The notes under the pieces: model-generated
Told to the model about the DNA's origin: nothing
Database searches by the model: none
What the model saw: the letters and a program-made list of their open reading frames with translations, nothing else
Assembly: GCA_038249055.1 (NCBI GenBank)
Contig: JBBRWS010000003.1
Span: 24,374-88,373, forward strand
Reading direction: 5' to 3'
From: Minisyncoccia bacterium
GTDB taxonomy: Bacteria; Patescibacteriota; Minisyncoccia; Phycocordibacterales; UBA9973
Length of the DNA: 64,000 nucleotides
Shown: in pieces, positions 2,732 through 50,417 of the stretch
How the letters are laid out: the number at the start of each line of letters is the position of its first letter
Numbering within the stretch: position 1 is the first letter of the stretch
Translations under genes and position numbers: made by a program

Positions 2732-3319
2732 TTAATTATATAGAGTCATTGCTTTATCTTTCCCTTCAGCGGAAACCATTACGATTATTTCTGCCACTTT
2801 TTTAGACATATTTTTAATAATCTTTAATTCGTCTTCTTTAAAACTTCCGAGTAAAAATTTAAGTACTGCTTCTTCCCCTTTTGGCTTTCTAAATTTACCT
2901 GTGGGTGTTGAAGGTGAAACTCCAATACGAATACGCACAAACTCACGAGATTTAACACGCTTTATTATAGATTCTAATCCGTTATGACCACCTGAGCTAC
3001 GGTCATATGATATTTTTAAGCTTCCAAGAGGTAAATCTAAATCATCGTAAACTGCTATCAAATTTTTTAATTTCTTTGGACTGTCAATCAAAGGAGCAAC
3101 GGCATTGCCTGAGTTATTCATAAAAGTATTTGGTAATAAAAATTCCACTTTTTCAGAATCTAATTCACCTTTTGCTCTTAATGATTTTAATTTCATATCA
3201 TCTTTCCATTCTGAAAAATCATTTGCTTTAGCAATTTTTTCTAAAATAATTCTGCCAGTATTATGACGTGTATTTTCATATTCTTTTCCTGGATTTCCTA
3301 ATCCAACTATTAACATCAT
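2732..3319 (-). CDS. pth: Peptidyl-tRNA hydrolase
   Basis: MMLIVGLGNPGKEYENTRHNTG N-terminus and overall Pth pattern. Confidence 0.9.
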   Translation of the reverse strand: MMLIVGLGNPGKEYENTRHNTGRIILEKIAKANDFSEWKDDMKLKSLRAKGELDSEKVEFLLPNTFMNNSGNAVAPLIDSPKKLKNLIAVYDDLDLPLGSLKISYDRSSGGHNGLESIIKRVKSREFVRIRIGVSPSTPTGKFRKPKGEEAVLKFLLGSFKEDELKIIKNMSKKVAEIIVMVSAEGKDKAMTLYN

Positions 3320-3448: not shown

Positions 3449-4069
3449 ATGGAAAATATTAATAGTCAAATTGAAAATAAAAATATTCCCGTTAAATCAA
3501 AATTTAAAAAGGGACTTGAAAATTTTTGGGATCTTGTTAAGTTTGCAGTAATTGCACTTCTTATTGTCGTTCCAATAAGAATGTTTGTAGCTCAACCATT
3601 TTTAGTAAGTGGTGAATCAATGTTCCCTACTTTCCACGATGGAGAATATTTAATAGTTGATGAATTATCTTATTTAATTGGTAGTCCAAATCGAGGAGAT
3701 GTAATAGTTTTTCGATTTCCAGGTGATACAAAAAGATTTTTTATTAAAAGAATAATAGGTATGCCAAACGAAGAAGTTTCAATAACTAACGGGGTGGTAA
3801 CTATTATAAATAAAGCCAATCCAGATGGCTTCGTTTTAACAGAACCCTATATTGATGAAAAATTCAATACAACTTCTTCTTATATAACAGGCAATGATGA
3901 ATACTTTGTAATGGGAGATAACAGAAATAGAAGCTCAGATTCTCGGTCATGGGGTGAACCTCTAGTTACTAAATTAACAAGTAAATTAATAATAGGCCGA
4001 GCATACTTGAGACTTTTACCTTTGAAAGATATCGCGTACTTGCCAGGATATTATAAAGAAACTAAATAA
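3449..4069 (+). CDS. lepB: Signal peptidase I
   Basis: N-terminal TM, SGESMFPTF catalytic Ser box, GDNRNRSSDSR box. Confidence 0.9.
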   Translation: MENINSQIENKNIPVKSKFKKGLENFWDLVKFAVIALLIVVPIRMFVAQPFLVSGESMFPTFHDGEYLIVDELSYLIGSPNRGDVIVFRFPGDTKRFFIKRIIGMPNEEVSITNGVVTIINKANPDGFVLTEPYIDEKFNTTSSYITGNDEYFVMGDNRNRSSDSRSWGEPLVTKLTSKLIIGRAYLRLLPLKDIAYLPGYYKETK

Positions 4070-4078
4070 CACTATTTT

Positions 4079-5371
4079 ATGGAAAATAAAAAAACAAAAA
4101 AAGGGCCTATCTCATCAGTAAAAGGAATGCGAGATATTATTGATAGTCAGTATTATCAATTCCAGGGATTTTTTGAAAAAGCACAAGAGATAGCTGTGTA
4201 CTACGGATTTAAACCAATTGAAACACCAATAGTAGAACAAGAGGATGTCTTTACTTCTTCTATTGGAATAGGTACTGATATTATTGATAAAGAAATGTAT
4301 ACTCTTAAAACAAAAGGTGGTGATCATTTAGCTCTAAGACCAGAACATACTGCGGGAATAATGCGCAGTTATATTGAGAATGGAATGCAGGCTCTTCCAC
4401 AGCCAGTAATGTTTTATAGTTATGGTCCAGTATTTCGTCATGATAATCCTCAAAAAGGTAGATATCGTCAATTTTGGCAATTTGATATGGATGTAATTGG
4501 AAGTGATAAAAGTATACTCGACGCACTTGTTATTAAAACTGCCTGGACAATACTTTTAGAAGCTGGAGCGACTAATCTTTCTGTAGATATAAATTCCATA
4601 GGAGATAAAGAATGTCGAGCAGGATATATTAGAGAATTAGTTTCATATTACAAAAAACATATTAATGAACTTCCCGCAATAGACAGAGAAAGATTAAAAA
4701 CAAATCCTCTTAGAATTCTTGATTCAAAAGAAGAAAAAACAATTGAAATAAATCAAAATGCTCCTGATACTTTATCGCACTTATGCATAAATTGTAAAAA
4801 ACATTTTAAAGAGGTGTTGGAATACCTGGAAGAGACTGGAATACCTTATTCCATAAATAAATGTCTTGTTCGTGGATTATCTTACTACACAAGAACAGTT
4901 ATCGAGATAGTACAGGAAGATAAAGAAACTGGTAAAAAAATGACAATAACTGCTGGTGGACGTTATGATTATTTAGGTAAACAACTTGGCAGCAAAAAAG
5001 ATATTGCGGCTGTAGGTATTTCTATTGGAGTAGACAGAATAGTTGAATCCCCTTGGTTTGCAAAATTATCTCCTCGTATAATTAAAAAACCTAAAATTTA
5101 TTTTATTCAACTTGGCTTTGATGCCAAATTAAAATCTTTAAATGTAATCGAGATTTTAAGAAAAGGTAAAATTGCTATAGCACAATCAATATCTAAAGAT
5201 AATTTAGGAGCTCAATTAGCAATAGCAGAAAAACTAGGAATGGAATATGCTATTATATTTGGACAGAAAGAAGCACTAGAAGATTCTGTAATTTTCCGTG
5301 ATATGAGTAATCGTTCACAAGAAACTGTTAAACTTCCAAAACTACTAGAATATATAAAAAATATTAAATAA
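4079..5371 (+). CDS. hisS: Histidine--tRNA ligase
   Basis: Class II aaRS motifs, GGRYD motif, HisRS-like anticodon-binding C-terminus. Confidence 0.9.
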   Translation: MENKKTKKGPISSVKGMRDIIDSQYYQFQGFFEKAQEIAVYYGFKPIETPIVEQEDVFTSSIGIGTDIIDKEMYTLKTKGGDHLALRPEHTAGIMRSYIENGMQALPQPVMFYSYGPVFRHDNPQKGRYRQFWQFDMDVIGSDKSILDALVIKTAWTILLEAGATNLSVDINSIGDKECRAGYIRELVSYYKKHINELPAIDRERLKTNPLRILDSKEEKTIEINQNAPDTLSHLCINCKKHFKEVLEYLEETGIPYSINKCLVRGLSYYTRTVIEIVQEDKETGKKMTITAGGRYDYLGKQLGSKKDIAAVGISIGVDRIVESPWFAKLSPRIIKKPKIYFIQLGFDAKLKSLNVIEILRKGKIAIAQSISKDNLGAQLAIAEKLGMEYAIIFGQKEALEDSVIFRDMSNRSQETVKLPKLLEYIKNIK

Positions 5372-9556: not shown

Positions 9557-9605
9557 AGTAATATAATATCATAAAAAATATACTTTTAAAACATTAAATA
9601 AATAA

Positions 9606-9650
9606 ATCAAAACCCAATTAATATAAATTAATTGGGTTTTGATTTATTAT
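9606..9650. terminator. Long hairpin terminator between permease and FN3 surface protein genes
   Basis: ATCAAAACCCAATTAAT-ataa-ATTAATTGGGTTTTGAT then T-rich. Confidence 0.6.
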
Positions 9651-9662
9651 TAATTTTATAAA

Positions 9663-15198: not shown

Positions 15199-17706
15199 TT
15201 ATGGTGCCTTAATAAAATATTTATAGAAAAAATATTTTGAAATTTCAGCAATTATAAGATAACTAACAACAATACCCGCTATAAGTAATAATAGAGGAAA
15301 AGGAAGTTTCGAAAATCCTAAAATAACCCCCAATGGAGTATAAGGAACTATCCAAGCAAAAATTACTACAGCAATAGTACTAAATGTAACAAAAATACCT
15401 GGAGTACTTCTAAAGAATGGTACACGTCTAGTTCTAATAATAAAGATAACTAATATTTGTGTGGCGATAGATTCAATAAACCATCCAGTTTGAAAATGTT
15501 GTTCATTTAAATTAAATACTTTATAAAGAACAAAGAATGTTAAGAAATCAAAGATGGAGCTAATAAGACCAAATACAATAATGTATTTAGAAAACTCTCT
15601 CATGTTCCACTTTAATGGATTTTTTACAGCTTCTATATCTGTTTTATCAGTTGGTATTGTAGTCTGAGAAACATCGTATAAAAAATTATTAAAAATTATT
15701 TGAGATGAAAGCATTGGGAAGAATGGTAAAAAAATAGATGCTCCCATCATTGAAAACATATTTCCAAAATTTGAGCTAAAACCCATTTTTATATACTTAA
15801 GAGTATTTTGAAATGTAGAACGCCCCTCTATTACCCCATCTTTTAGAACGTGTAAATTTTTATTTAAAAGAATTATATCTGCAGTTTCTTTTGCAACATC
15901 AACCGCATTATTGACCGATATCCCAACATCAGCAATTTTCAAAACTGGTGCATCGTTAATCCCATCTCCCATATATCCTACAGTATGATCATTTAATTGT
16001 AATAATCTTACAATTCGTTCTTTTTGAATAGGAGAAACTCTAGCAAAGATATTTGTTGAATCCAATTTTTGTGAAAGTTCTTCATCTGTTAGAGTATTCA
16101 ACATAGCTCCAGTAAGAGAACCTTTTATCTCTATATTCAAATCTTTACAAATACGTTCAGTAAGAATTTCACTATCCCCTGTAATAATTTTTACTTCAAC
16201 TGAAAGATTTTTTAATTCTTCTAGGGCTGAACTAGCACTTTTTTTAGGTGGATCCAGAAAAGCAGCATAACCTACAAAAGTCATATTTTCTTCCTCTTGG
16301 TTTTTATATTTAATTCTTTCATCTTTTTCTATTTTCTTTACAGCTACAGCAAGAACACGAAAACCATCAGCGCTTAATTTGTCGTATTCATTTTTAGCCT
16401 TTTCTTTAATTTCATTATCAAATATGGATATATTATTTCCATCCTCGAGCATATTAGAAATAGAAAAAATACTCTCTGGAGCTCCTTTGGTAATCATTAA
16501 TCTCTCTCCATTATGTTCAACTATGATTGAATCTCTTTTCCTCTCAAAATCAAAAGGGATTTCATCTATTTTTGTATACGAACTTGAGTCCATCTTTCCA
16601 CGAATTTGTATTGCTTCATCAAGAGGACTTTTGCGGGCAGTATGATATATACTATTTAAATATGAATATAGGAGAGTATTTTTTGAATCAACGTCAAAAA
16701 TATTTATACATTTTATAAGTTCAATTTTATCTTCAGTTAAGGTCCCCGTTTTATCTGTACAAAGTATATCCATACTTCCAAAATTTTGCACAGATGCTAA
16801 ATTTTTCAATATAACCTGCTTTTTTGCCATACGAAGAGATCCATGAGAAAGTGTAACTGTCATAATAACAGGGAGAAGCTCCGGTGTAAGTCCTACTGCT
16901 ATTGCAGCTGCAAATAAAAATGAATTCAATACTCCTCTATCATTAAAAGCATTTACTAAAAAAACAAAAATTACCATCACTAAAGTAAGTCGAACAATAA
17001 AAATACTAAAATTTTTAAGCCCTATTTCAAAACTAGTTTTTTGTTTAACAGCGGAAAGTCTATCTGCAATTTTACCAAATTCTGCCTGTGAACCAGTTTG
17101 AATAACTTGAGCTATAGCAAAACCTGTTACCACCGACGTACCCATAAACACAGCATCCGTATCAGTTAATTTTAGAGAAATACTTGTTAAAGAAATATTA
17201 TCTTCCATTACAAATTTCTCTACAGGAAATGACTCTCCAGTTAGTACTGATTGATTTACGAAAAAATCATCGGCAGATATAATAATACAGTCAGCAGGTA
17301 TAACATCTCCAGCTGAAAGTTCAATTATATCTCCCGGCACTAACCCATGAAAAGGTATTTCTTGTTTTACTCCGTCACGACGGACCGTTGCTGTTGAAGC
17401 TACTTTTTCTACCAATCGTTCAGCAACTTTTTCCGATTTATAACTATTAAAAAAGTCCAAGGAAACTGAAACAAAAATCATAACCAAAAGAATTATTGCA
17501 TTAACAGACTGTCCAAAAAAGAATGCAATAATAGCAGCTCCCATTAAAAGAAATAGAAGAGGATTATTAAACTTCTTAAGAAACATAACTACGGGTTGAA
17601 GTTTTTTTCGATGATAAATAGTATTTTCACCGAATTTTACTAAATATTTTTTTGCCTGAAAAGAAGTCAAACCATTGACTACATCAGTTCTTTTATTTTC
17701 TTGCAT
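15199..17706 (-). CDS. mgtA: Magnesium-translocating P-type ATPase (MgtA-like)
   Basis: DKTGTLT phosphorylation motif, GDGINDAPVLK, PELLPVIMTVTLSHGSLRMAKKQVILKNLASVQNFGSMDILCTDKTGTLT closely parallels MgtA. Confidence 0.8.
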   Translation of the reverse strand: MQENKRTDVVNGLTSFQAKKYLVKFGENTIYHRKKLQPVVMFLKKFNNPLLFLLMGAAIIAFFFGQSVNAIILLVMIFVSVSLDFFNSYKSEKVAERLVEKVASTATVRRDGVKQEIPFHGLVPGDIIELSAGDVIPADCIIISADDFFVNQSVLTGESFPVEKFVMEDNISLTSISLKLTDTDAVFMGTSVVTGFAIAQVIQTGSQAEFGKIADRLSAVKQKTSFEIGLKNFSIFIVRLTLVMVIFVFLVNAFNDRGVLNSFLFAAAIAVGLTPELLPVIMTVTLSHGSLRMAKKQVILKNLASVQNFGSMDILCTDKTGTLTEDKIELIKCINIFDVDSKNTLLYSYLNSIYHTARKSPLDEAIQIRGKMDSSSYTKIDEIPFDFERKRDSIIVEHNGERLMITKGAPESIFSISNMLEDGNNISIFDNEIKEKAKNEYDKLSADGFRVLAVAVKKIEKDERIKYKNQEEENMTFVGYAAFLDPPKKSASSALEELKNLSVEVKIITGDSEILTERICKDLNIEIKGSLTGAMLNTLTDEELSQKLDSTNIFARVSPIQKERIVRLLQLNDHTVGYMGDGINDAPVLKIADVGISVNNAVDVAKETADIILLNKNLHVLKDGVIEGRSTFQNTLKYIKMGFSSNFGNMFSMMGASIFLPFFPMLSSQIIFNNFLYDVSQTTIPTDKTDIEAVKNPLKWNMREFSKYIIVFGLISSIFDFLTFFVLYKVFNLNEQHFQTGWFIESIATQILVIFIIRTRRVPFFRSTPGIFVTFSTIAVVIFAWIVPYTPLGVILGFSKLPFPLLLLIAGIVVSYLIIAEISKYFFYKYFIKAP

Positions 17707-17797: not shown

Positions 17798-19162
17798 TTA
17801 ATTTACGAACGTTAAAGCTACTCCAACTTGATTCGCACGGCCAGTACGGCCTATACGGTGAACATAGTCTTCATAAGTAGCAGGAATTTCATAATTAATA
17901 ACGTGGGTAACATTTGGGATATCCAGTCCTCGAGCAGCAACATCAGTTGCAACAAGTATTTGACTATGATTATCTCTAAATGCTTTCAATGCACTTTGGC
18001 GTCTTGATTGATTTTTATCTCCGTGAATTGATTCAGCTTTATACCCTCTTTGAACTAATGTTTGACAAAGTTTTTCAACTCCATGTTTTGTACGTCCAAA
18101 AATAAGAACTTTAGAAAACTCCTTTTTAGATAAAAGAGAATGCAATGAATCAATTTTATCAGAACCATGAGGTACACGAATAATATCTTGATCTACGTTT
18201 CTGGCTGTATCTCCAGTTTTAGTAGAAATCCTTTCAGGATTAGTTAAAAATTCTACAATTAATTTATCAATTTCTTTTGTTATTGTTGCAGAGAATAATA
18301 ATGTTTGACGATTTGGTGCCATATTAGCCATAATAAATCGCATGTCATTTACAAATCCCATGTCGAGCATTCTATCTGCTTCATCAAGAACTATTGTTCT
18401 GAATTCTGCTAGACGAATAACTCTACGGTCAACTAAATCTTTCAAACGTCCAGGAGTACCAATCACTATATTGTGATCTCTGCGTAATCCATAAATTTGA
18501 TTTGAAATACCCATTCCTCCAACACAACATACAGAGTAAATTCTAAGTGCTCCTCTAAATGCCATCAATTCTTCATTAATTTGTGTTGCTAATTCTCGAG
18601 TTGGTACAATTACCAAAACTTTTTCACGAGGATTATTCATAATTTTATCTAATAGTGGAATCAAAAACGCAGCTGTTTTACCAGTTCCTGTATTTGCTAT
18701 ACCAACAACATCACGTCCATTAAGTACAAATGGAATAGCGACGTCTTGAATAGGAGTCGGATTCACATAACCTTTTTGGGTAATGTTATTTTTTAATGTT
18801 GCATGAATTTTAAAATCAGCAAATTTATTTACTGGTATATATGGAGCTGACTCAACTATTGGGTCTGCTTTACATATAAAACGAGAATGGCTTATATTAC
18901 TATCTCCACCATAACGAGGCTTAGAAGATCTTCCACGGTTACCACCGCCACTTGAGCGACTATAACCACCACTAGAACGACCTCCGCTATTGCTACTATT
19001 TGAACGACTATAACCACCACTTGGGCGACTACTACCACTAGTTCCGCGACCAGTAGAAGAACTGCCACGATAACTGCTTCTTTGTCCACTAGAAGATGGA
19101 CGACTTGAACCACCCGAAGATGGCTGACCGGAGCTTCCGCCACGGCTATTTGGTTTATACAT
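17798..19162 (-). CDS. DEAD-box ATP-dependent RNA helicase with ~100-aa Gly/Ser/Arg-rich (RGG/SGG/YSRS) N-terminal low-complexity extension
   Basis: Q motif GYVNPTPIQ, Walker A TGTGKTAAF, DEAD (VLDEADRMLD), SAT, HRIGRTGRA; N-terminus SRGGSSGQPSSGGSSRPSSSGQRSS... Confidence 0.85.
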   Translation of the reverse strand: MYKPNSRGGSSGQPSSGGSSRPSSSGQRSSYRGSSSTGRGTSGSSRPSGGYSRSNSSNSGGRSSGGYSRSSGGGNRGRSSKPRYGGDSNISHSRFICKADPIVESAPYIPVNKFADFKIHATLKNNITQKGYVNPTPIQDVAIPFVLNGRDVVGIANTGTGKTAAFLIPLLDKIMNNPREKVLVIVPTRELATQINEELMAFRGALRIYSVCCVGGMGISNQIYGLRRDHNIVIGTPGRLKDLVDRRVIRLAEFRTIVLDEADRMLDMGFVNDMRFIMANMAPNRQTLLFSATITKEIDKLIVEFLTNPERISTKTGDTARNVDQDIIRVPHGSDKIDSLHSLLSKKEFSKVLIFGRTKHGVEKLCQTLVQRGYKAESIHGDKNQSRRQSALKAFRDNHSQILVATDVAARGLDIPNVTHVINYEIPATYEDYVHRIGRTGRANQVGVALTFVN

Positions 19163-19448
19163 ATTATTTTCCCCAGTCTATAATTATAAAAGTAAGACGG
19201 ACTAGGACCCTTATCCCTTAAGGTTTCCATAAAGACTTTCCATTTGGGATAAGGCGTTATATACAGGCGCTACATGCGCAAGAAAACCATTGAGACTACA
19301 ACTTACTTGACTAGTATATAACTAATAATTATATTTGTCAACCCCACACTTATACCTATATCATTATATACTGTAACCTCGGTTTGATTTCTAAGTCATT
19401 ACGATTTATAAACATAGAAATATAAATACATATGGTCACGAAATAAAT

Positions 19449-24046: not shown

Positions 24047-24613
24047 TTAAACTTCAAAAGATTCAAGCGTCTTCATTAAAGCTGAGACGGGAAGACCTAT
24101 AATCCCATCGTAATCCCCACTCATATTTATAACAAATGTTTCTTTAATAGTTTGAATAGCATAAGCTCCCGCTCTTGTAAGAGGTTCCCCTGTCTCCACA
24201 TACTCGTCTATCTCTTTGTCGGATAAATCTTTAAACTTTATTTTTGCCTCAGCTACTTCTGAAATTATTTTTTTACTCTTTGTATCTATAACTGTATAAC
24301 CTGATAAAACAGTATGTTCATTACCACTAAGAATCCTGAGCATTTCTTTCGCACGCTCTCTAGTGTGTGGCTTACCGAGAACTAATCCATTAAAAGATAT
24401 GAAAGTGTCACCACTTATAATAATGGCATCTTCATAATACTGTGCTACACTTTCTGCCTTCCCTTTTGATAAAAATTTTACAAGCTCATCTGGTGGCATA
24501 GGCAATGTCATATCTTCTTCATAATTACTAGCAACCGCCTCAAAGGAAAGGCCTGTTTTAGCCAATAATTCTTTTCTTCTTGGTGATGTTGATGCAAGTA
24601 TAATTTTTCTCAT
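24047..24613 (-). CDS. maf: Maf-like nucleoside triphosphate pyrophosphatase
   Basis: MRKIILASTSPRRKELL N-terminus, Maf fold pattern. Confidence 0.85.
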   Translation of the reverse strand: MRKIILASTSPRRKELLAKTGLSFEAVASNYEEDMTLPMPPDELVKFLSKGKAESVAQYYEDAIIISGDTFISFNGLVLGKPHTRERAKEMLRILSGNEHTVLSGYTVIDTKSKKIISEVAEAKIKFKDLSDKEIDEYVETGEPLTRAGAYAIQTIKETFVINMSGDYDGIIGLPVSALMKTLESFEV

Positions 24614-24751: not shown

Positions 24752-25060
24752 TTATTTTATGAAACTCCTGTTGTGTGCATCTATTGCTTCACGAACAAGT
24801 TCAACCTCTTCATCTGCCCAAGCAGATTTTTTCAACTTATCTGTAAGCTTCTCTTTATCCAATCTATTAAATGAGGATAAACATTGGCCACAAACAACAA
24901 CGCCTTTCATCATGGTACCTTTTTCATATACAACTGGAGATTTCGTATAGATTAACGAATCCTTTTCCCTGTAAAGAAAACTGCATTCACAATTTGTGCA
25001 TCTTCCATACTCAAGAATGCTTCCCAAAATATTACCGAAAAAATTCAAAATTTTTTTCAT
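24752..25060 (-). CDS. Small Cys-rich (CxxC...CxxC) hypothetical protein, possible zinc ribbon
   Basis: ORF 24752-25111; start moved to second Met (MKKILNFF) to avoid overlap with upstream gene; CTNCEC and CGQC pairs. Confidence 0.45.
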   Translation of the reverse strand: MKKILNFFGNILGSILEYGRCTNCECSFLYREKDSLIYTKSPVVYEKGTMMKGVVVCGQCLSSFNRLDKEKLTDKLKKSAWADEEVELVREAIDAHNRSFIK

Positions 25061-25071
25061 CTTCAAATTTA

Positions 25072-26151
25072 TTAATTTTTCAAAATTTCCATAGCCTTTT
25101 CTACACAGCAATTATTATAAATTGCTTTTCTCTCAGGGATAGGAGAAAGAGATGCAATTGAACCCGTAATCAACACAGAAAGTGCTGACAGATTTAAATA
25201 TTCAGCATCTGTAGGTACTTCACCGAGAGTTGCTTTAACTAATTCCAATTTATCAATACAGCACAAAGTGTTCTGTATTTTTGAAAAAGGAATCGGCTCA
25301 CCGCAATACATATCACCTTGTCCAACCCTTAAGTTTTGCAAGAAGTTATCAAGCTCATTTGTACCTGGTACATTTGGAAAGATTGTTTCCCCGCCATTTA
25401 CGTACATAGGTAAAACATATAATTCCTTTTTGGATGCCATTTGCATAAGGCAAGGCAACCTTGAAACGATAGGTTCTGGAACTCCCATCTGAATAGAACG
25501 GTTCTTTTCTGGAAACAAATAAATCATTTTGCTTCCAACCTTAACGTCACTACATAAAGATCTGAGAGTAATTTGATTTTGCATTCTCATTTGTTTAACC
25601 GCACATTCACACCCACTATCCTTCATTTTTTGAATATGTTTCGGTTGAAAAACCGGATACTTATCAAAACCCGAAGTAACAATATTTGCAATTCTAGCGT
25701 ATTCAAACACCTGACTTGCAATAAACGATGGTGTAAAAGAGTTCGGTCGAATTTCAGAGGTTAATTCTTCTGAAATCAAACAATCGAGAGCAGTCGCATG
25801 ATTCATAACAGCCAAAACATTATGACCGCTATTGATCAATTCCAACGCTTTCTGATAATTTTGTGATCCAAAAAGTTTGCACTCTTCAGCTTTTACAAAA
25901 GTACCTATGAGCCATTTTAGAACTGCCTTAGAATCATCACATGGAACATAATGCCCCGTGAAAGTATTAGGTCTCACACTTAATGCATCTAACGATTTCA
26001 ATAGAATTTCTTTTCCTTTTTGGTATCCTTTAATACCGCAATTTGAATATAATTCCACCACTTTTTCTGAAATAAATGACTCCATGTCACTTGGATGATT
26101 ACCCCATGCATTAAACTCAGGAATCAATCCCATTGGTTGAAAATTTTTCAT
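25072..26151 (-). CDS. Soluble glycerol-3-phosphate acyltransferase-like protein (plant plastidial ATS1/GPAT type)
   Basis: FGSQNY...SGHNVLAVMNHATALD (HX4D acyltransferase motif in the context GHNV-L---NH-TEAD of plastidial GPAT) and FPEKNRS (cf. FPEGTRS). Confidence 0.55.
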   Translation of the reverse strand: MKNFQPMGLIPEFNAWGNHPSDMESFISEKVVELYSNCGIKGYQKGKEILLKSLDALSVRPNTFTGHYVPCDDSKAVLKWLIGTFVKAEECKLFGSQNYQKALELINSGHNVLAVMNHATALDCLISEELTSEIRPNSFTPSFIASQVFEYARIANIVTSGFDKYPVFQPKHIQKMKDSGCECAVKQMRMQNQITLRSLCSDVKVGSKMIYLFPEKNRSIQMGVPEPIVSRLPCLMQMASKKELYVLPMYVNGGETIFPNVPGTNELDNFLQNLRVGQGDMYCGEPIPFSKIQNTLCCIDKLELVKATLGEVPTDAEYLNLSALSVLITGSIASLSPIPERKAIYNNCCVEKAMEILKN

Positions 26152-26164
26152 AATTTAGGTTTTA

Positions 26165-26305
26165 GTTTAATTTAAGTTTTGTTTGAATTACCTTACACTC
26201 CATTTAGAAATACAAGGTAATTCAAACAAATATCAATTAATAAAACCATATTTCGAAGAACTACTACCTTTATATAATAGCATATTTATATGTTTTTGTC
26301 AATAT
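26165..26305 (-). promoter_or_regulatory. Conserved promoter + 5' leader hairpin module, copy A (upstream of GPAT-like gene)
   Basis: Minus-sense TTGACA-N17-TATTAT, then 13-bp-stem hairpin TTTGAATTACCTT...AAGGTAATTCAAA about 30 nt before ATG. Confidence 0.5.
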
Positions 26306-26377
26306 AATAAATATTAATATTTTTCTATTGTATACTGATAAATTAAGCTTTTTTACTCATAAATCAACTAAAAAATA

Positions 26378-26414
26378 AAAATAAGGTTAATCACTCTGGA
26401 TTAACCTTATTTTA
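26378..26414 (-). terminator. Terminator of amidase gene
   Basis: AAGGTTAATC-actctg-GATTAACCTT with flanking A/T runs. Confidence 0.6.
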
Positions 26415-26454
26415 AACATTCGGCAGATTTTTATATTACAAAAATCAAAATTAC

Positions 26455-27216
26455 TTATTTTTTCATAAATCTTTCAAGTGATTTTGTAATAACCAACGCG
26501 TAATCTTCCCTCACCTTTGGGTCTCTGATTCGCCATAAATCTTTCTCGTTCTTAAAATTTCCAAGTTCAAGAAGAACACATTCTCTGATTTTATTAGTAT
26601 TACTCAAAACATAAATATTTTTAACCCCTTTAGATTTATCTCCACTTGTAATAATAGAATTTACATGATTACTTAATCGATTTTTAATCTCTAATTCTTT
26701 TTTAAGACATAGAGCGAGAAAATTACTCTTCCTACCGGTAATAATACGAGCACCTGCAAATTCTTTTTTTACTACATCAAAGTGTATTGAAATATATACA
26801 ACTTTATGTTTCGGAAAATTCTTTAGCTTTAAATTTGCAAAAGCAACTCTTTTAGATAAGCCAGAACTACCGGCTTTAACATTTGAACGATCAAAAGAAA
26901 AAACCGCATTTGAAGCACATACAATCGCTTGCTGTGGGTCATTATTTATTGGTTTTAATTGATTGGTTTTTATAGTCTTAAAAACTATTGCACCTTTGCT
27001 TTTTAAAAGATTTTCCAATCTAATAGCTACGTCATAGCAGTAGGCGCTTTCGGTTACACATTGTTTATTTTTACCAAACAAACTACTTGCACCAGGGTCG
27101 CTTCCTCCATGACCAGGATCAATCACAACAACCAAACCATATAATTCTTGGCTAGGTACATTTTTAAAGCTAACTAAAGCAATAAAAATAATAACGAGAA
27201 AAAATATTTTTTTCAT
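26455..27216 (-). CDS. N-acetylmuramoyl-L-alanine amidase (Amidase_3 family), secreted
   Basis: Signal peptide; VVIDPGHGGSDPGA zinc-binding motif. Confidence 0.75.
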   Translation of the reverse strand: MKKIFFLVIIFIALVSFKNVPSQELYGLVVVIDPGHGGSDPGASSLFGKNKQCVTESAYCYDVAIRLENLLKSKGAIVFKTIKTNQLKPINNDPQQAIVCASNAVFSFDRSNVKAGSSGLSKRVAFANLKLKNFPKHKVVYISIHFDVVKKEFAGARIITGRKSNFLALCLKKELEIKNRLSNHVNSIITSGDKSKGVKNIYVLSNTNKIRECVLLELGNFKNEKDLWRIRDPKVREDYALVITKSLERFMKK

Positions 27217-27296
27217 ATTTCTCTTTTTTGTAGGTTTTCAAAATAGCGTTTTTCTTCACATTACAAGATATTTTTCATTCTGTCAATCTTTATAAC

Positions 27297-27340
27297 AAAA
27301 AAAATAAACCGTGATTCCAAACAAATGGAAACACGGTTTA
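27297..27340 (-). terminator. Terminator of FG-GAP paralog 1
   Basis: AAACCGTG...CACGGTTT hairpin, T-run in minus sense; homologous copy at 28890-28934. Confidence 0.6.
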
Positions 27341-27356
27341 CTGATTATATTAAAGG

Positions 27357-28718
27357 CTATTTTTTTATAACCTTAAGAGTTTTTCCTGAGACATTTACAA
27401 AATATATTCCAGGTTTATGAGGCAGACCAATAACTGTTTTACCAGCGTTGCATTGTGTTTTTTGTATGACCCTAGAAGTGGAGTCTATAATAGTTAACAT
27501 TTCACCTTCCTTGGTATTTTCAATGTTTAAAATATCAATACAAGGATTGGGAAAAATTTTTAATTCAGAATTATTAATTTGATTAACCGCGGTATGAATA
27601 TCACCAGTGGTATTAATCAGAACTGATAAACCTGTATAACTATTAACAGAAACAATATCTGGTTTCCCATCATTATTTACGTCCGCGACCACAATTCCAT
27701 CTGGATCATTATTATTAGGTGAATTTGTATTAAATACAGTGACAACCTTATTAATAACTACCTGTACACGACCACTTGATATCATGACAATATCATCATA
27801 GCCGTCAGAATTAAGATCACCAACGGAAAGTGCCCCGGGGTTAACCTGATTATCAATATCAAAAGAGATATCAGAGTTAGCTCCCCATACACCAATTTTT
27901 CCAGTAACTGAATAAACTAATTCCTTTCTATTATCTGAACTAATATTTCCAACTACAATTGAAGATGGATTATTTTTATCCGGAATAATGTTTAGATTGG
28001 TCAACATTTCAATGCTTCTATCTTTTCTAAATTTATAAACAGAAACATAATTAAAACCGCCTTGACCATTCATTTTTATTACCGAATTAAAACTATCAGA
28101 CCCGAGCTTTGCAATCTCAATATCATCATACCCTGATTGTGTCGAGGGATAATAATAAGGTAAGGATAGACAACCGATACTATCACAATAATATGCAACA
28201 ATATTGGGTTGATTCCATAGAGAAACTACAATGTCATTTATTCCGTCATCGTTAATATCGCCAATTTTTACAGCATCTACTGTTTTCCCGGCATAAATAT
28301 TAATAGGATGTCCTAATTTACCAACAGTATTTTGATGATAAATAATAATCTCATCACCAGCACCTAATACAACATCACTAAGTCCATCATTATTAATATC
28401 GCCTGAGCTTATAGTGCTCACATCATATTTTTGATAATAAGGATAAACAGCTGATAGCTGTAGGGTATTGCTTGAATCCTGAAGATAAATAAATAATTTA
28501 AAATTAGTATTTACACTTGGATTACTAGCATAAGAACCGGTCGCAACAGCGACGTCTATCTTACCATCGTTATTAAAATCACCTGCCGTCAGGTGATCAG
28601 CTAATGTTCCATTTATGGGATAATTTTTTACCCCTGAAAATGTAACTTGCCCGCAAGCAATGTTACCGATAGAAAGAATACCAAATACAACAACTAGAGT
28701 AATCAGAATTTGTTTCAT
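27357..28718 (-). CDS. Secreted FG-GAP/VCBS-repeat beta-propeller protein with C-terminal T9SS-type (Por secretion tail-like) sorting domain, paralog 1
   Basis: Signal peptide; repeated DxNxDGxxD(I/V)V motifs (DFNNDGKIDVAV, DINNDGLSDVV, DINDDGINDIV...); C-terminus KIFPNPCIDILNIEN...IIDSTSRVI...GIYFVNVSGKTLKVIKK. Confidence 0.7.
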   Translation of the reverse strand: MKQILITLVVVFGILSIGNIACGQVTFSGVKNYPINGTLADHLTAGDFNNDGKIDVAVATGSYASNPSVNTNFKLFIYLQDSSNTLQLSAVYPYYQKYDVSTISSGDINNDGLSDVVLGAGDEIIIYHQNTVGKLGHPINIYAGKTVDAVKIGDINDDGINDIVVSLWNQPNIVAYYCDSIGCLSLPYYYPSTQSGYDDIEIAKLGSDSFNSVIKMNGQGGFNYVSVYKFRKDRSIEMLTNLNIIPDKNNPSSIVVGNISSDNRKELVYSVTGKIGVWGANSDISFDIDNQVNPGALSVGDLNSDGYDDIVMISSGRVQVVINKVVTVFNTNSPNNNDPDGIVVADVNNDGKPDIVSVNSYTGLSVLINTTGDIHTAVNQINNSELKIFPNPCIDILNIENTKEGEMLTIIDSTSRVIQKTQCNAGKTVIGLPHKPGIYFVNVSGKTLKVIKK

Positions 28719-28734
28719 AATTTTTATTATTAAT

Positions 28735-28880
28735 TTTTAGTTTATATTTATTTGAATTACTTTAAATTTCATATAGAAATACAAAGTAATTCAAATAAAT
28801 TACTGTCTAAAAATTATTTTATCAAAGAGCTAAGACTAACTTATATAGTAGCATAAATATAGAGATTTGTCAATCTATAT
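28735..28880 (-). promoter_or_regulatory. Conserved promoter + 5' leader hairpin module, copy B
   Basis: Minus-sense TTGACA-N17-TACTAT then TTTGAATTACTTT...AAAGTAATTCAAA hairpin ~33 nt before ATG. Confidence 0.5.
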
Positions 28881-28889
28881 TCTAATTTC

Positions 28890-28934
28890 ATAAAAAAATA
28901 AACCGTTATTCCAAGCAAATGGGATAACGGTTTA
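28890..28934 (-). terminator. Terminator of FG-GAP paralog 2
   Basis: AAACCGTTAT...ATAACGGTTT hairpin. Confidence 0.6.
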
Positions 28935-28952
28935 TCAAATAAATTTTCAAAG

Positions 28953-30335
28953 CTAATTCTTTACAACTTTGAATGTTTTACCCGATATATTTACAAAATA
29001 AATTCCAGGATAAAAACCTTCCATACTAACGACTGTTTTATCGTAATCAGTTTTAATCTTCTTTATTACTCTGGAAGTTGAGTCATAAATAGTCAAGATA
29101 TCCTTTCCGTTTGTATTATTAATGTTTACAATATTTTTACAAGGGTTAGGAAATACATTAAGCTCAGTGTCATTAATTTGATTTGTACCTGTAATAATAG
29201 TGGTATTGAGCATAATTGTTAAACCTGTATTACCATTACATGAAACAATGTCTAGTTTCCCATCACTATTTACATCCGTAATAGCTATCCCATCAGGTGA
29301 ATTAATATCTGGTGAATTCGTTGAGAATTTATATATCACCTTATTAACAATCACTTGCACAAAATTATTACTAATCATTACAATTTCATCGATTCCGTCG
29401 GAGTTTAAGTCTCCAGCAGCCAAGGCCCCACTATTATATGGAGTCTGTAAATCAAATGATATTTCAGGAGATGCTCCCCATACATTTATCATTCCATTTA
29501 CTGAATAAATAAGTTCATTCCTTTTGTCGGAAGTAACATTACCCATAACAATAGAGACGGGCATATTATTAACACTATTTGAAATGAGATCTAAATTGGT
29601 TTCAGTATTCAGACTTCTGTCTTTATTAAAATGATAAACAGTAAAAGATAATCTTCCTTTACTGTAGAGTCCTCCTTGACCATACATTTTAATTACAGAA
29701 TTAAAATTATCATCTCCAAGTCGAGCAATCTCAATATCACCATACAATGATGCTCCTGAAAAATACCAAACTGGATAAGCTAATTTGCCCATACTGTCAC
29801 CATAAAAGGCGGCAATGTTTGACTGTCTCCGAAGAGTAATAATGATATCGTTTATTCCATCATCATTTATGTCCCCAATTTTTAGAGCATCAGGTATTGC
29901 ACCACAATAGGTATAAACTGGTGAATTAAATTTACCGTTTACATTTTGGTAAAAAATACCAATTTCTGCTTCTACGGCAATGACAATATCACAGAGACCA
30001 TCATTATTCACGTCACCTGCACCTATTGCCCCCACGCCGTCGGTAGCATGACCATAAGTATAACTATCTGAAAGAATCAAACTGTTGTTCTTATCTTGTA
30101 GGTATACCATTACTTTATAGTTAGTATTGAGACCAGAATCAGTCGTATACGAACTTGTTGCTACAGCAACGTCCTTTTTACCATCATTATTAAAATCACC
30201 TGTTGTAAGGTGATTTGCTAATGTTCCCAAAATTGGGAAATTAGTAAAGGGAGAAAATGTAACTTGCCCGCAAGCGATGTTACTAAACAAAATAAAACCA
30301 AACACAACAAAAAAATTCACTACTAAATTTTTCAT
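28953..30335 (-). CDS. Secreted FG-GAP/VCBS-repeat protein with T9SS-type C-terminal domain, paralog 2
   Basis: Same architecture as 27357-28718, tandem paralog; C-terminus LNVFPNPCKNIVNINN...IYDSTSRVI...GIYFVNISGKTFKVVKN. Confidence 0.7.
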   Translation of the reverse strand: MKNLVVNFFVVFGFILFSNIACGQVTFSPFTNFPILGTLANHLTTGDFNNDGKKDVAVATSSYTTDSGLNTNYKVMVYLQDKNNSLILSDSYTYGHATDGVGAIGAGDVNNDGLCDIVIAVEAEIGIFYQNVNGKFNSPVYTYCGAIPDALKIGDINDDGINDIIITLRRQSNIAAFYGDSMGKLAYPVWYFSGASLYGDIEIARLGDDNFNSVIKMYGQGGLYSKGRLSFTVYHFNKDRSLNTETNLDLISNSVNNMPVSIVMGNVTSDKRNELIYSVNGMINVWGASPEISFDLQTPYNSGALAAGDLNSDGIDEIVMISNNFVQVIVNKVIYKFSTNSPDINSPDGIAITDVNSDGKLDIVSCNGNTGLTIMLNTTIITGTNQINDTELNVFPNPCKNIVNINNTNGKDILTIYDSTSRVIKKIKTDYDKTVVSMEGFYPGIYFVNISGKTFKVVKN

Positions 30336-30349
30336 GATTTCGTTTTTTA

Positions 30350-30490
30350 AATGGTTAGATTATTTGAATTACTTTAAATTCCATATAGAAATACAAAGTA
30401 ATTCAAATAAGTCACGACTTAAAAAAACTTTATCAAAGAACTGATACTGCCTAATAGTCTGACATAAATGCATGGCTTTGTCAATTTACA
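30350..30490 (-). promoter_or_regulatory. Conserved promoter + 5' leader hairpin module, copy C
   Basis: Minus-sense TTGACA then TTTGAATTACTTT...AAAGTAATTCAAA hairpin ~28 nt before ATG. Confidence 0.5.
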
Positions 30491-30606
30491 ATCAGATAAC
30501 TAAAAGGAAACGTGTCTAAGTACATTTCCAATTATATTTTTTATTCAAATAACTAACCACATATAAACAATCGAATAATTGTTTAAATTTTGATATAATC
30601 AACTAT

Positions 30607-34967: not shown

Positions 34968-35112
34968 TTTTTAGTATATTATTTTAATTAATTTATTTAT
35001 TTTGGCTCGGTCTTTAAAAATAACATATTAATTTTTACTAATCAATAAAAAACACCATAAGACCATGCATTTGACTGAAATAAAAATAAATATTATTAAA
35101 AAAATTTTATTC

Positions 35113-35146
35113 TAAAAAACCGTCTATATAATATAGACGGTTTTTT
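35113..35146. terminator. Bidirectional hairpin terminator
   Basis: AAAAAACCGTCTATAT-aa-TATAGACGGTTTTTT. Confidence 0.65.
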
Positions 35147-35160
35147 AGAATAAAATAATA

Positions 35161-39109: not shown

Positions 39110-39466
39110 ATGGATTCATCAAATTCAAACACAACAAAGCCGTTATACCGTGGAACACAAATTGTTTGGTATATTCTAGGTATTATTGAAGTAGTATTAG
39201 CATTTAGATTTGTTCTAAAGCTACTTGCAGCTAACCCTTCAGCAGGTTTTAGTAATCTAATTTATAGTATTAGTTATCCTCTCGCAACTCCATTTTTAAA
39301 TGTCTTTAAATTATCAAAAATCTCAGGAAGTATTTTTGAATGGACTACACTTTTAGCTATGATGGTATATTGGATAATTGCTTTAGGTATTATTAAATTA
39401 TTCTTTATGAGTAAGTCAGTATCTACTCCTGAGGCTGCAATAAAATTAGATAACGCAAATAAATAA
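39110..39466 (+). CDS. YggT-like small membrane protein
   Basis: 118 aa, FRFVLKLLAANPSAGFSNLIYSISYPLATPFLNVF pattern like YggT/Ycf19. Confidence 0.5.
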   Translation: MDSSNSNTTKPLYRGTQIVWYILGIIEVVLAFRFVLKLLAANPSAGFSNLIYSISYPLATPFLNVFKLSKISGSIFEWTTLLAMMVYWIIALGIIKLFFMSKSVSTPEAAIKLDNANK

Positions 39467-39475
39467 TACAAAAAT

Positions 39476-39506
39476 AAAAAACCGTCTAATTTTAGACGGT
39501 TTTTTA
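39476..39506. terminator. Bidirectional terminator
   Basis: AAAAACCGTCTAA-ttt-TAGACGGTTTTTT. Confidence 0.65.
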
Positions 39507-39529
39507 TTTTTGTATATTCTATGTATAAC

Positions 39530-43282: not shown

Positions 43283-43558
43283 ATGGAAACTTTAACTGTA
43301 TTGTTTGATATATTAATAGCTTTATTATCGTTGTGGGTTGTTTTTAAACTAATAGGTTATGGCGGAACTATTGGTAAATCATTATCCCAAGTCGGTTATG
43401 GAATTGTAATAATCGGATTTTCGCAGATTTTAGAAACAGCTGGTTTATTATTTTTTGATGAAAGTGTATTTGATATGCATGTTATTCATCGCTCTGTTCT
43501 TACAACTGGTTTCTTATTAGTAGCATGGGGTTTTAAAAATTTAATGGAAAAAAAATAA
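43283..43558 (+). CDS. Small membrane protein
   Basis: 91 aa, 3 TM. Confidence 0.4.
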   Translation: METLTVLFDILIALLSLWVVFKLIGYGGTIGKSLSQVGYGIVIIGFSQILETAGLLFFDESVFDMHVIHRSVLTTGFLLVAWGFKNLMEKK

Positions 43559-45134: not shown

Positions 45135-45277
45135 GATTTAATTCTATCATAATTTAAAACTTATATTAAGATATAAAATATCCATTGCAAAATATACCTG
45201 CCCGCCCTCTGGCAGAGTTTAAAATAGCTGTTCTACTTCATAGAACGAGATAGAAACATTTTCGAATAAAGTAAAAT

Positions 45278-45310
45278 AAAAAAGACCCACAATAAAGTGG
45301 GTCTTTTTTA
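45278..45310. terminator. Bidirectional terminator
   Basis: AAAAAGACCCAC-aataaa-GTGGGTCTTTTTT. Confidence 0.65.
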
Positions 45311-45325
45311 TTAAATAACTTCAGT

Positions 45326-49885: not shown

Positions 49886-50248
49886 TCACCTTGGAACAGT
49901 GCAACTGTCGTCAAATTTGTTAATACCAGAAGAACCTCCAAATTCATAAGTGTACCAACAGGCAAAAAGCGCCTTCCGGTCTGACCAATAGTTACCTGAA
50001 TACATCTTAGATTGAAAACATTTAATTTTCCAATGTGGGTCAGTTTTTACCTCTGATGGATTTTCAACTAATGTTGTTACTAATTCAAGACTATAAATTT
50101 TGAGACCAAACCAATCTTTGTATGACCAAATTTGTTTAAGTTTTTCAAAACTATCAACTCCATATAAAATTACATTTTCTCTTAGGGGTAAAAATAATTC
50201 TTCCCCATTTAAAAATTTTAATTTAATTACTTCAGTTTCTTGTTTCAT
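49886..50248 (-). CDS. Hypothetical protein
   Basis: 120 aa. Confidence 0.45.
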   Translation of the reverse strand: MKQETEVIKLKFLNGEELFLPLRENVILYGVDSFEKLKQIWSYKDWFGLKIYSLELVTTLVENPSEVKTDPHWKIKCFQSKMYSGNYWSDRKALFACWYTYEFGGSSGINKFDDSCTVPR

Positions 50249-50417
50249 TGTATTTATTTTTAACTGTAAGTACTATTATTACTTTTTTCTTCACATTACT
50301 TCTAATCAGAAATGATGTCAATACAACAAAATAACCCTAATATGATTAAGGTTAAAATTGATGAATTTTAACTTGGAAAGAAGTGAGAACTTTGACAGAG
50401 AAGATAAATGAGTAATA

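Follow-up and report, generated by a model that had tools for sequence, protein, structure and literature searches.

A two-helix structured 5′ leader shared by three genes of a Paceibacterota genome, a candidate cis-acting RNA

In the 5′ untranslated region (UTR) of Escherichia coli adhE and in the leaders of phage lambda N and T7 gene 0.3, cleavage by RNase III unmasks the ribosome-binding region, and phage T7 places one conserved type of RNase III hairpin (R0.3, R1.1, and others) before several genes. Firmicutes employ 5′ stabilisers against RNase J, including the aprE leader hairpin, ermC, and the cryIIIA STAB-SD, and in the fourU and ROSE thermometers a U-rich strand pairs with the translation-initiation region. 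Almost nothing is known of gene regulation in the Patescibacteria or Candidate Phyla Radiation (CPR), and none of the Paceibacterota considered here has been cultured. Some cis-regulatory RNA motifs of CPR bacteria have already been catalogued, e.g., lysM-TM7 (Weinberg et al. 2017, PMC5737381). Here, a 64-kb stretch of contig JBBRWS010000003.1 from a Candidatus Paceibacterota genome (the window) is analysed, in which an acyltransferase-like gene and two paralogous surface-protein genes share one module: a sigma-70 promoter, a conserved 13-nt box, and a rod of two stacked helices, the hairpin P2 and the outer helix P1, which ends shortly before the AUG. The module is read as a cis-acting structured 5′ leader RNA of this CPR lineage, in which the ribosome-loading region would be masked by P1 and freed once RNase III has processed P2, and this complete reading is given a probability of roughly 0.4; that the leader controls translation or mRNA processing is probable.

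The class-1 pattern of the module, TTTGAATTACYTT-N17-21-AARGTAATTCAAA, matches exactly three times in the window, at 26182-26226 (copy A), 28751-28795 (copy B), and 30363-30407 (copy C), with no match expected by chance (100 dinucleotide shuffles of the window). All three copies have the spacing TTTGAATTACYTT-N19-AARGTAATTCAAA and lie within 5.4 kb upstream of three minus-strand genes, in agreement with a first-pass annotation of this DNA that had assigned one shared promoter and leader module to these genes:

25072-26151, minus strand: gene A, a 359-aa PlsC/GPAT-like acyltransferase
27357-28718, minus strand: gene B, a 453-aa secreted FG-GAP repeat protein with a C-terminal sorting domain of the type IX secretion system (T9SS) type
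28953-30335, minus strand: gene C, a 460-aa paralogue of the gene B product, with FG-GAP repeats and a T9SS C-terminal domain (CTD)

On the minus strand, the pattern ends 30 nt (A), 32 nt (B), and 27 nt (C) before the ATG, and the hairpin-to-AUG distance of 28-33 nt given earlier fits the first two and narrowly misses the third. With filters off, a covariance-model search across the full 64 kb returned only these three copies and no fourth one.

Further copies exist in related genomes. Scans for a loosened palindrome in a representative genome collection and in metagenome contigs returned 52 loci (L numbers denote such loci and contigs), 15 of which hold the whole module in order, namely the -35, the extended -10, the box, the hairpin, 25-36 nt, and the ATG; two of these 15, L014 and L037, are identical in sequence. 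The 33 matches of the genome scan are mostly chance palindromes in unrelated phyla, and only L011, L012, L014, L015, and L033 were kept. Additional modules come from contigs fetched via homologues of the acyltransferase, and four more hairpin leaders from a structure-only scan. Protein names assign the related sequences to CPR lineages, and the histidyl-tRNA synthetase of the window clusters at 90% identity with proteins named Candidatus Paceibacterota bacterium. Every copy is located 10-36 nt before a start codon.

The first description covered only part of the element, which has two helices and a palindrome that extends outward, to arms of 17-25 nt. A 13-bp stem with a 19-nt loop had been reported, and most nucleotides of that loop turn out to be paired: on the mRNA strand, GUAUUUC pairs with GGAGUGU, GAAAUUU, or GGAAUUU via G·U wobbles, adding 5-7 pairs, several of them G·U, and leaving a 5-nt loop on a stem of 21-24 pairs. 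The three hairpins are the following:

26178-26230, minus strand: P2 of module A, 23-24 pairs including 4 G·U, 5-nt loop, 17-nt perfect arms
28746-28800, minus strand: P2 of module B, 24 pairs, 5-nt loop; inverted repeat I7 with 25-nt arms
30360-30410, minus strand: P2 of module C, 21-22 pairs, 2 of them G·U

The loop core, described as CCAT(A/T)TAGAAATAC, is found as such in A and C and reads TCATATAGAAATAC in B; loop and apex together (26195-26215, 28765-28782, and 30375-30392, minus strand) read UAUAUGGAG or UAAAUGGAG. Across 24 hairpins of the family, P2 has 20-27 pairs (mean 23.6), a low G+C content, and no more than 1-2 mismatches, and the fold energy of the whole leader has a z-score of -6.8 against shuffled sequences.

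The available evidence favours a hairpin selected as a structure in the mRNA, i.e., on the sense strand. In 24 of 24 hairpins, folding is more stable in sense than in antisense, with a mean difference of -5.7 kcal/mol (-26.6 against -18.3 kcal/mol in module A), and again in the four hairpins added by the structure-only scan, that is in 28 of 28 modules in all. Moreover, the 24 hairpins form 68 G·U pairs in sense and 10 in antisense, and in an RNAalifold alignment of 15 sequences the three apical columns are either kept as wobble pairs (GU in 12/15, UG in 12/15) or vary only as UG/UA/CG (7/4/4). The compensatory C/G pair of copy A (ACCTT/AAGGT), on which the first-pass annotation had relied, is real, and so is the RNA-level structure, but a single C-G/U-A swap cannot by itself separate RNA from DNA; the two are told apart by the G·U asymmetry and by helix P1.

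The annotation had also named the opposite possibility, a palindromic DNA operator, at which a dimeric repressor bound to two TGAATTAC half-sites downstream of the promoter would block transcription. The class-1 arms are perfect Watson-Crick inverted repeats of invariant sequence, their position downstream of a strong promoter suits a repressor, and symmetric changes in the arms are also expected of a dimer site. Such an operator is nonetheless improbable, given the strand asymmetry of the G·U pairs and of fold stability, and the spacer between the arms, which is itself paired and covarying. The core between and including the conserved arms measures 41, 42, or 43 nt across members, a variation that is tolerated by a hairpin loop and not by a dimeric DNA-binding protein and thus favours RNA. 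Furthermore, homologous modules have unrelated stem sequences of equal stem length, e.g., the second copy of L011 (AUAUAGGAUUUUCUAAGUUUCUC...GGGAGGUUUAGAAAAUCCUAUAU), and the half-site sequence is absent from the modules of L054 and L057 and from the second modules of L011, L015, L063, and L066. The hairpin and its spacing to the AUG are kept with unrelated stems in L011b, L054a, L054b, L057a-d, L059, L063b, and L066b, most of which retain the promoter and the box and also the downstream A-rich tail, and the stems are unrelated even in the orthologous acyltransferase leaders of L054 and L057. Lastly, P1 would be meaningless at the DNA level.

P1 is formed by 8-13 A-U and G·U pairs between the U-rich spacer 5′ of P2 and the A-rich segment before the AUG, thereby enclosing P2 (GGUUUUA/UAAAACC in A, UAAUUUUUAG/CUAAAAAUUA in B, and GUUUUUU/AAAAAAC in C). 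Its strands are located as follows:

26235-26247, minus strand: P1 5′ strand of module A, GGUUUUAUUAAUU (minimum-free-energy (MFE) fold and duplex test)
26158-26172, minus strand: P1 3′ strand of module A, AAUUAAACUAAAACC, ending 6 nt before the AUG
28807-28816, minus strand: P1 5′ strand of module B, UAAUUUUUAG (fold and duplex test)
28731-28740, minus strand: P1 3′ strand of module B, CUAAAAAUUA, ending 12 nt before the AUG
30417-30428, minus strand: P1 5′ strand of module C, GUUUUUUUAAGU (fold and duplex test)
30342-30355, minus strand: P1 3′ strand of module C, ACCAUUUAAAAAAC, ending 6 nt before the AUG

P1 is real and specific to its own module: it appears in most MFE folds, and the duplex energy of its strands averages -6.2 kcal/mol within modules against -4.1 kcal/mol across modules, a mean that none of 20,000 permutations reaches (p≈5e-5). 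MAFFT alone failed to place P1 in register, and a hand alignment was used instead; in the resulting structural alignment (A4), pairing holds in 93% of the cells, each of the 10 P1 pairs has changes in both partners, and none of 500 shuffles does as well. Because this alignment was fitted to the helix, the conclusion on P1 is drawn from the permutation test. The 3′ strand of P1 ends 1-12 nt, mostly 5-8 nt, before the AUG, so that the presumed region of ribosome loading is paired in the unprocessed leader, as in leaders of the adhE and T7 type, with a P1 that is weak in about a quarter of the members.

The predicted stability of the rod bears on whether it could switch by itself. The pairing probability of P2 is predicted at about 1.0, and that of P1 at a mean of 0.75 at 10 °C, 0.74 at 37 °C, and 0.67 at 55 °C. 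An RNA thermometer of the fourU or ROSE kind, in which P1 would melt upon heating and free the start region, would suit a helix of A-U and G·U pairs that covers the segment just before the AUG, and one module precedes an Hsp70-like gene and another a sigma factor; it is highly improbable all the same, as the predicted P1 probability barely moves over 10-55 °C and most downstream genes are unrelated to temperature stress. Neither the MFE folds nor a pairing test of the box with the start region revealed an alternative fold of the leader. Specifically, pairing of the 5′ box with the start-codon region in a third helix was rejected (-3.95 kcal/mol within modules against -4.27 across, p=0.74), as was the box as an alternative partner of the 3′ arm of P2, for which some 5-7 weak pairs counted by eye would have to compete with a 23-bp hairpin. 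The high predicted stability, the insensitivity to temperature, and the lack of alternative pairing indicate that the leader is not a self-contained switch. A riboswitch was likewise rejected, since the element consists of two stacked helices with joints of variable length (J1 1-15 nt, J2 0-17 nt) and no conserved junction or pocket, and the downstream genes are mutually unrelated.

Termination within the leader was also considered. P2 as an intrinsic terminator or attenuator was rejected, as it is AU-rich and followed by AAAUAAAUAUAAAC, and the terminator scan omits it while listing true terminators nearby; the terminators of the window use short GC-rich cores, unlike P2. Several bidirectional intrinsic terminators of the window (9598-9651, 35101-35159, 39459-39522, 2304-2342, and 45271-45316) are long and perfectly symmetric hairpins made of an A-tract, a GC core, and a U-tract, in contrast to the AU-rich, wobble-bearing leader hairpins.

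Upstream of the rod, the module comprises a promoter of near-consensus sigma-70 type (TTGACA, 17 bp, TGnTAnnAT) and a 13-nt box, AGTTCTTTGAWAT, conserved in the initial transcribed region, which starts 8-15 nt after the -10 and ends 4-7 nt before P1:

26297-26302, minus strand: -35 of module A, TTGACA (sigma-70 match 11/12, TG present; best in the region)
26274-26282, minus strand: extended -10 of module A, TGCTATTAT (promoter scan)
26250-26262, minus strand: box of module A, AGTTCTTCGAAAT (conserved block in alignments A1 and A2)
28868-28873, minus strand: -35 of module B, TTGACA (promoter scan)
28845-28853, minus strand: extended -10 of module B, TGCTACTAT (promoter scan)
28819-28831, minus strand: box of module B, AGCTCTTTGATAA (alignment column block)
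30479-30484, minus strand: -35 of module C, TTGACA (read from the sequence)
30454-30464, minus strand: degenerate -10 region of module C, TGTCAGACTAT, one base more than in copy B
30430-30442, minus strand: box of module C, AGTTCTTTGATAA (alignment column block)
26378-26413, minus strand: terminator-like hairpin 3′ of the amidase gene, just upstream of the module A promoter
30506-30529, minus strand: terminator-like hairpin just upstream of the module C promoter

The promoters of A and B (TTGACA, a 17-bp spacer, and an extended -10, TGnTATTAT or TGnTACTAT) are the best sigma-70 matches between 24.6 and 30.7 kb. The same layout had been ascribed to all three copies; it does not extend to C, where the -10 is degenerate and the promoter scan picked up nothing. 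Each module gene has its own promoter and terminator, and the terminator-like hairpins just upstream of promoters make each of them a separate transcription unit. A start about 7 nt after the -10, as promoter consensus would place it, would give a leader of ~112-120 nt. Two other promoter types were rejected: the -33/-7 type of Bacteroidota (TAnnTTTG), considered on account of the T9SS domains, has a motif that does not fit, the promoters being sigma-70-like and the organism a member of the Paceibacterota, and there is no convincing -10 for a second, leaderless-type promoter between P2 and the ATG.

Its resemblance to an extended -10 means that the box could act as a sigma-dependent pause site or as a second promoter. 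The amidase gene (26455-27216) and the gene at 49886-50248 share the promoter TTGACA-N17-TAATGTGAAGAAAAA, at 27258-27286 and 50293-50321 (both minus strand), followed by a 40-45-nt leader that contains a box-like sequence (GCTATTTTGAAAA or AGTACTTACAG) and no hairpin. Because a box-like sequence thus occurs at two promoters that lack the hairpin, the box may be a promoter-associated element independent of it.

The module genes stand apart in a genome with unusual translation signals. None of the 62 predicted genes of the window is preceded by a convincing Shine-Dalgarno (SD) sequence, and 60 of them have no SD-like sequence at all. A TGnTAnnnT motif ends 4-11 nt (mode 6) before the ATG of 20 of the 62 genes, against 1.7% at internal ATGs, which makes it probable that many mRNAs are transcribed without a leader from extended -10 promoters; 24047-24613, 15199-17706, and 43283-43558 are example genes of this survey. 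The module genes, with their presumed ~112-120-nt leader, differ from the probable leaderless genes, and a few other genes of the window have TTGACA promoters and unstructured leaders of 40-45 nt, two of them with the box-like sequence. One further leader, at 19160-19350 (minus strand) upstream of the gene at 17798-19162, whose product starts with a Gly/Ser/Arg-rich tail, has a TTGACA promoter (19313-19341), a length of ~150 nt, and a fold energy of -43 kcal/mol; it has no match in Rfam and may be another cis-regulatory RNA.

The distribution of the module among orthologous genes shows that the copies are kept at defined positions. Among acyltransferase orthologues of at least 64% identity, 6 of 7 genomes carry it (the window, L040, L063, L066, L054, and L057). 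In the seventh, L064, the orthologue has a TTGACA promoter and a 27-nt A-rich leader without P1 and P2, and distant orthologues (42-47% identity) lack the module, one of them being leaderless. The FG-GAP orthologue in L044 also carries it, and L054 has the gene order pth-lepB-hisS-def-fmt-hpf in common with the window. That the acyltransferase copy might be a by-product of the local FG-GAP duplication, which would have undone the original proposal, is therefore not the case, since orthologues in five other genomes have the module. More generally, it is barely credible that the copies are a functionless by-product of duplication or a mobile promoter cassette. B and C do belong to a tandem gene duplication that also copied terminators (families D3-D8), yet the conservation of P2 far exceeds that of the DNA around it and of the coding sequence, both helices stay paired through covariation, and modules are also present at the acyltransferase orthologues and at the FG-GAP orthologue of L044. 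Elements of the repetitive extragenic palindrome (REP) or miniature inverted-repeat transposable element (MITE) kind are not a good match either, as there are no terminal repeats or target duplications, and the three copies in 64 kb all keep a fixed distance to a start codon. The class-1 pattern has no match in viral contigs, and the module is thus not a phage element.

The genes downstream of the module are heterogeneous. Besides the acyltransferase and the FG-GAP/T9SS-CTD proteins, they include a sigma-70-family protein (L012) and an Hsp70/YegD-like protein (L051), and the majority code for small orphan proteins with signal peptides or membrane helices. With at least 12 unrelated genes preceded by the module, the specific coupling of a lipid acyltransferase to two surface proteins that had been proposed is lost, and the element makes no particular link of lipid metabolism to these two proteins. 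These genomes instead use a leader design of wider scope, and the class-1 module is one of its sequence classes. In L057, which has four modules in 14 kb, the acyltransferase module (3020-3200) directly adjoins the 3′ end of a tRNA gene (GGTTCGATCCC...CCGGAGCA). The sequence CACTTGATTTTTAATTTAA is common to both L057 promoters and suggests homogenisation of promoter sequences within a genome. In L011, a 386-aa protein with metallophosphoesterase-like motifs (GNHP..., GHFH) is encoded between two module-bearing genes (3486-4646, plus strand), and because of its phage-like look the region may be a mobile island.

Taken as a processed leader, the module would work as follows. A leader of ~112-120 nt would be made from the sigma-70 promoter, with the box at its 5′ end followed by the rod of two stacked helices. 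In a genome without SD use and with many apparently leaderless mRNAs, the A-rich segment would be the only plausible ribosome-loading sequence of the leadered mRNAs, and P1 would keep it double-stranded. Because P2 spans two full turns of AU-rich duplex, it would be open to attack by a factor that acts on double strands, with RNase III as the likeliest candidate, and cleavage of P2 followed by loss of the upstream fragment would yield an mRNA with an open A-rich leader. The length of P2 is that of the near-continuous double-stranded RNA (~20 bp or more) in leaders processed by RNase III, and the L064 orthologue, which has promoter and leader without helices, shows that the rod is a removable add-on. 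The genes for RNase III, RNase J, and PNPase are reported to persist in no fewer than 90% of CPR genomes (PMC12641178).

Several points weigh against this mechanism. Class-1 P2 is conserved far beyond the needs of pairing, for which a nonspecific double-strand nuclease gives no account, and neither the box nor the GGAG-rich apex of P2 has a role in this model. P1 is weak or absent in about a quarter of the members (L012, L043, L051, and L059), and its register in alignment A4 was fitted by hand with N padding and is biased toward the structure, the permutation test being the unbiased one. The transcription start is a putative one, placed by promoter consensus. A tblastn search found no rnc gene in ~0.9 Mb of fragments, which is too little to be informative. 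Lastly, after a cut by RNase III the two halves would still be joined by ~20 AU-rich pairs, and opening would need a further step.

The rod may instead be a constitutive stabiliser of the mRNA, in which P1 and P2 stall RNase J or endonucleolytic entry just upstream of the AUG and, with no switching, provide long life to highly expressed leadered mRNAs that lack the protection of a 5′-bound ribosome. This explanation is possible, though doubtful. It draws on the predicted stability of both helices, nearly complete for P2 and flat for P1 over 10-55 °C, which is not switch-like, on the lack of an alternative fold, on heterogeneous downstream genes behind very strong promoters, on a generic design with many different stem sequences, and on the retention of RNase J in CPR genomes. 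It is weakened by the position of the hairpin, which starts ~45 nt from the inferred 5′ end and not at it, by the presence in CPR of RNase III, for which a perfect ~23-bp duplex should itself be a target, and by the short GC-rich stems of the local terminators, which would suffice for stability. Moreover, it accounts neither for the sequence conservation of class-1 P2 nor for a P1 that covers the region before the AUG. If the element is only a stabiliser hairpin, it is still an annotation flag for promoters, 5′ UTRs, and true start codons in Paceibacterota metagenome-assembled genomes.

The conservation of P2 speaks for a sequence-specific site, at which a trans-acting protein or RNA would read class-1 P2, possibly as the nascent 5′ arm and perhaps together with the box, and co-regulate a set of genes. 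Copies B and C agree in 94% of P2, although their proteins share 56% amino-acid identity, A agrees with either of them in 82%, and the other leader segments of the window copies are 44-77% identical. Likewise, the class-1 arms (UGAAUUACYUU/AARGUAAUUCA) are almost invariant in 17 modules of different genes and genomes, amid drifting flanks, apex, and P1; the 5′ end of the leader bears the conserved box, and the modules occur in islands, such as those of the window and L057. Against such a reader, the architecture holds with unrelated P2 sequences in one and the same genome (L011a/b, L015a/b, L063a/b, and L066a/b), orthologous acyltransferase leaders have swapped their P2 sequence entirely, and a stable helix hides the conserved part. 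The analysis yielded no candidate for the shared regulator, and a sequence-specific site is on the whole unlikely.

The apex of P2 has features of its own. Of 24 members, 12 have an SD-like GGAG on its 3′ side, whereas the genome has ~2 per kb, and a purine-rich GGAG or GAAG after the loop is kept across unrelated P2 sequences, in a genome that does not use SD sequences. By the criteria of a CsrA site, GGA follows the P2 loop in ~14 of 24 members (apices read by inspection) and no second GGA is found near the AUG. In A, B, and C, an open reading frame of 10-13 codons begins at an AUG in the P2 loop, and the loop AUG of L042 shares its frame with the main gene; control by a conserved upstream reading frame or leader peptide was rejected, as the loop AUG is missing in L012, L045, L051, and the non-class-1 hairpins. 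It would be a long shot to see in the module the outward sign of a licensing system devoted to leadered mRNAs, in bacteria whose other messages are translated without leader or SD sequence, and in which the box, the class-1 arms, and the GGAG apex are read by a factor or by the 3′ end of the 16S rRNA and decide when surface and accessory proteins are made. If true, the licensed set would comprise the FG-GAP/T9SS-CTD proteins, the envelope acyltransferase, and small secreted proteins, e.g., upon contact with a host cell, and translation initiation would be controlled in a new way.

As for the proteins behind the three modules, the assignment of the FG-GAP repeats and of the T9SS-type CTD of B and C is solid, and that of gene A as an acyltransferase is weak: the match to PF01553 is below the cut-off (16.5 bits against 23), but the HX4D motif is present (NHATALD). 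Gene A belongs to a small, lineage-specific family of 22 proteins and has no match in a sequence search of the PDB. It is followed, 12 nt after its stop, by a gene for a 102-aa Cys-rich protein (CxxC...CxxC; 24752-25060, minus strand) without a promoter of its own, and the same pair occurs in the Logan contig L001, for which reasons the two genes are probably co-transcribed under module A. The type-A C-terminal sorting domain of the T9SS scores 31 bits against a cut-off of 23 (TIGR04183; also PF18962). Domains of this type are present in three CPR proteins (27357-28718 and 28953-30335 in the window and 4-1710 in L057), whose signal peptides are directly followed by Gln (..ACG|Q, ..KA|Q, and ..HS|Q). 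A T9SS CTD and Gln after the signal peptide are features usual in Bacteroidota, and both are unexpected in a lineage thought to lack both an outer membrane and a T9SS.

At the gathering threshold, Rfam 15 returned for the whole window only a LOOT RNA located elsewhere and no family on the module, and at E≤10 module A matched only generic miRNA-precursor hairpins (best MIR7696, 22.8 bits against a cut-off of 83). In the literature on CPR leaders, leaderless translation, and structured RNAs, no description of the element was found. With no Rfam match and no paper found that describes it, the element is an undescribed RNA family of a familiar kind, the structured cis-acting 5′ leader. For this group of bacteria it is a well-supported structured RNA, with strand-specific wobbles, two covarying helices, and conservation at orthologous genes. 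Most of the proteins that it marks are secreted or belong to the envelope, and their expression differs from that of other genes of the genome; it also raises the question of how an internal AUG is used without SD sequences where many mRNAs are apparently leaderless. The LOOT RNA (RF03000; 59184-59320, minus strand) scores 62.4 bits against a gathering cut-off of 46.4 over the full model length and lies between two small minus-strand open reading frames, near a type I restriction-like gene (59744-62875).

Among the known systems, the adhE, lambda N, and T7 0.3 leaders resemble the module in the paired ribosome-loading region and in a long duplex of a size suited to RNase III, and in the model preferred here processing would likewise activate translation and not destroy the mRNA. 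However, leaders of the adhE type mask an SD sequence, of which the present genome makes no use, and the module design recurs before many genes without sequence similarity to those leaders, with a cleavage that is here only proposed. The RNase III hairpins of T7 share with the module a repeated hairpin of about two turns, similar in sequence and placed shortly upstream of several reading frames, but they lie within polycistronic transcripts, and an internal loop restricts their cleavage to a single strand, whereas the module has its own promoter and terminator and an almost perfect stem; furthermore, no copy of the module was found in viral contigs. The Firmicutes stabilisers are alike in the stable 5′-UTR structure, in the SD-like GGAG far upstream of the start (12 of 24 P2 apices), and in the RNase J kept by CPR bacteria; conversely, their hairpins stand at the extreme 5′ end, whereas the structure of the module is preceded by ~45 nt including the box, and STAB-SD is single-stranded, whereas the GGAG of the module is paired. 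The fourU and ROSE elements show the same A-U and G·U pairing of a U-rich strand with the initiation region and differ from the module, which has no SD, a P1 predicted to be stable at 10-55 °C, and an extra helix of 20-27 bp. Finally, motifs of the lysM-TM7 type are likewise candidate cis-regulatory structures in the 5′ UTR of CPR genes related to the cell envelope, and, compared with the catalogued CPR motifs and Rfam families, the module is a simple rod without a multi-helix junction.

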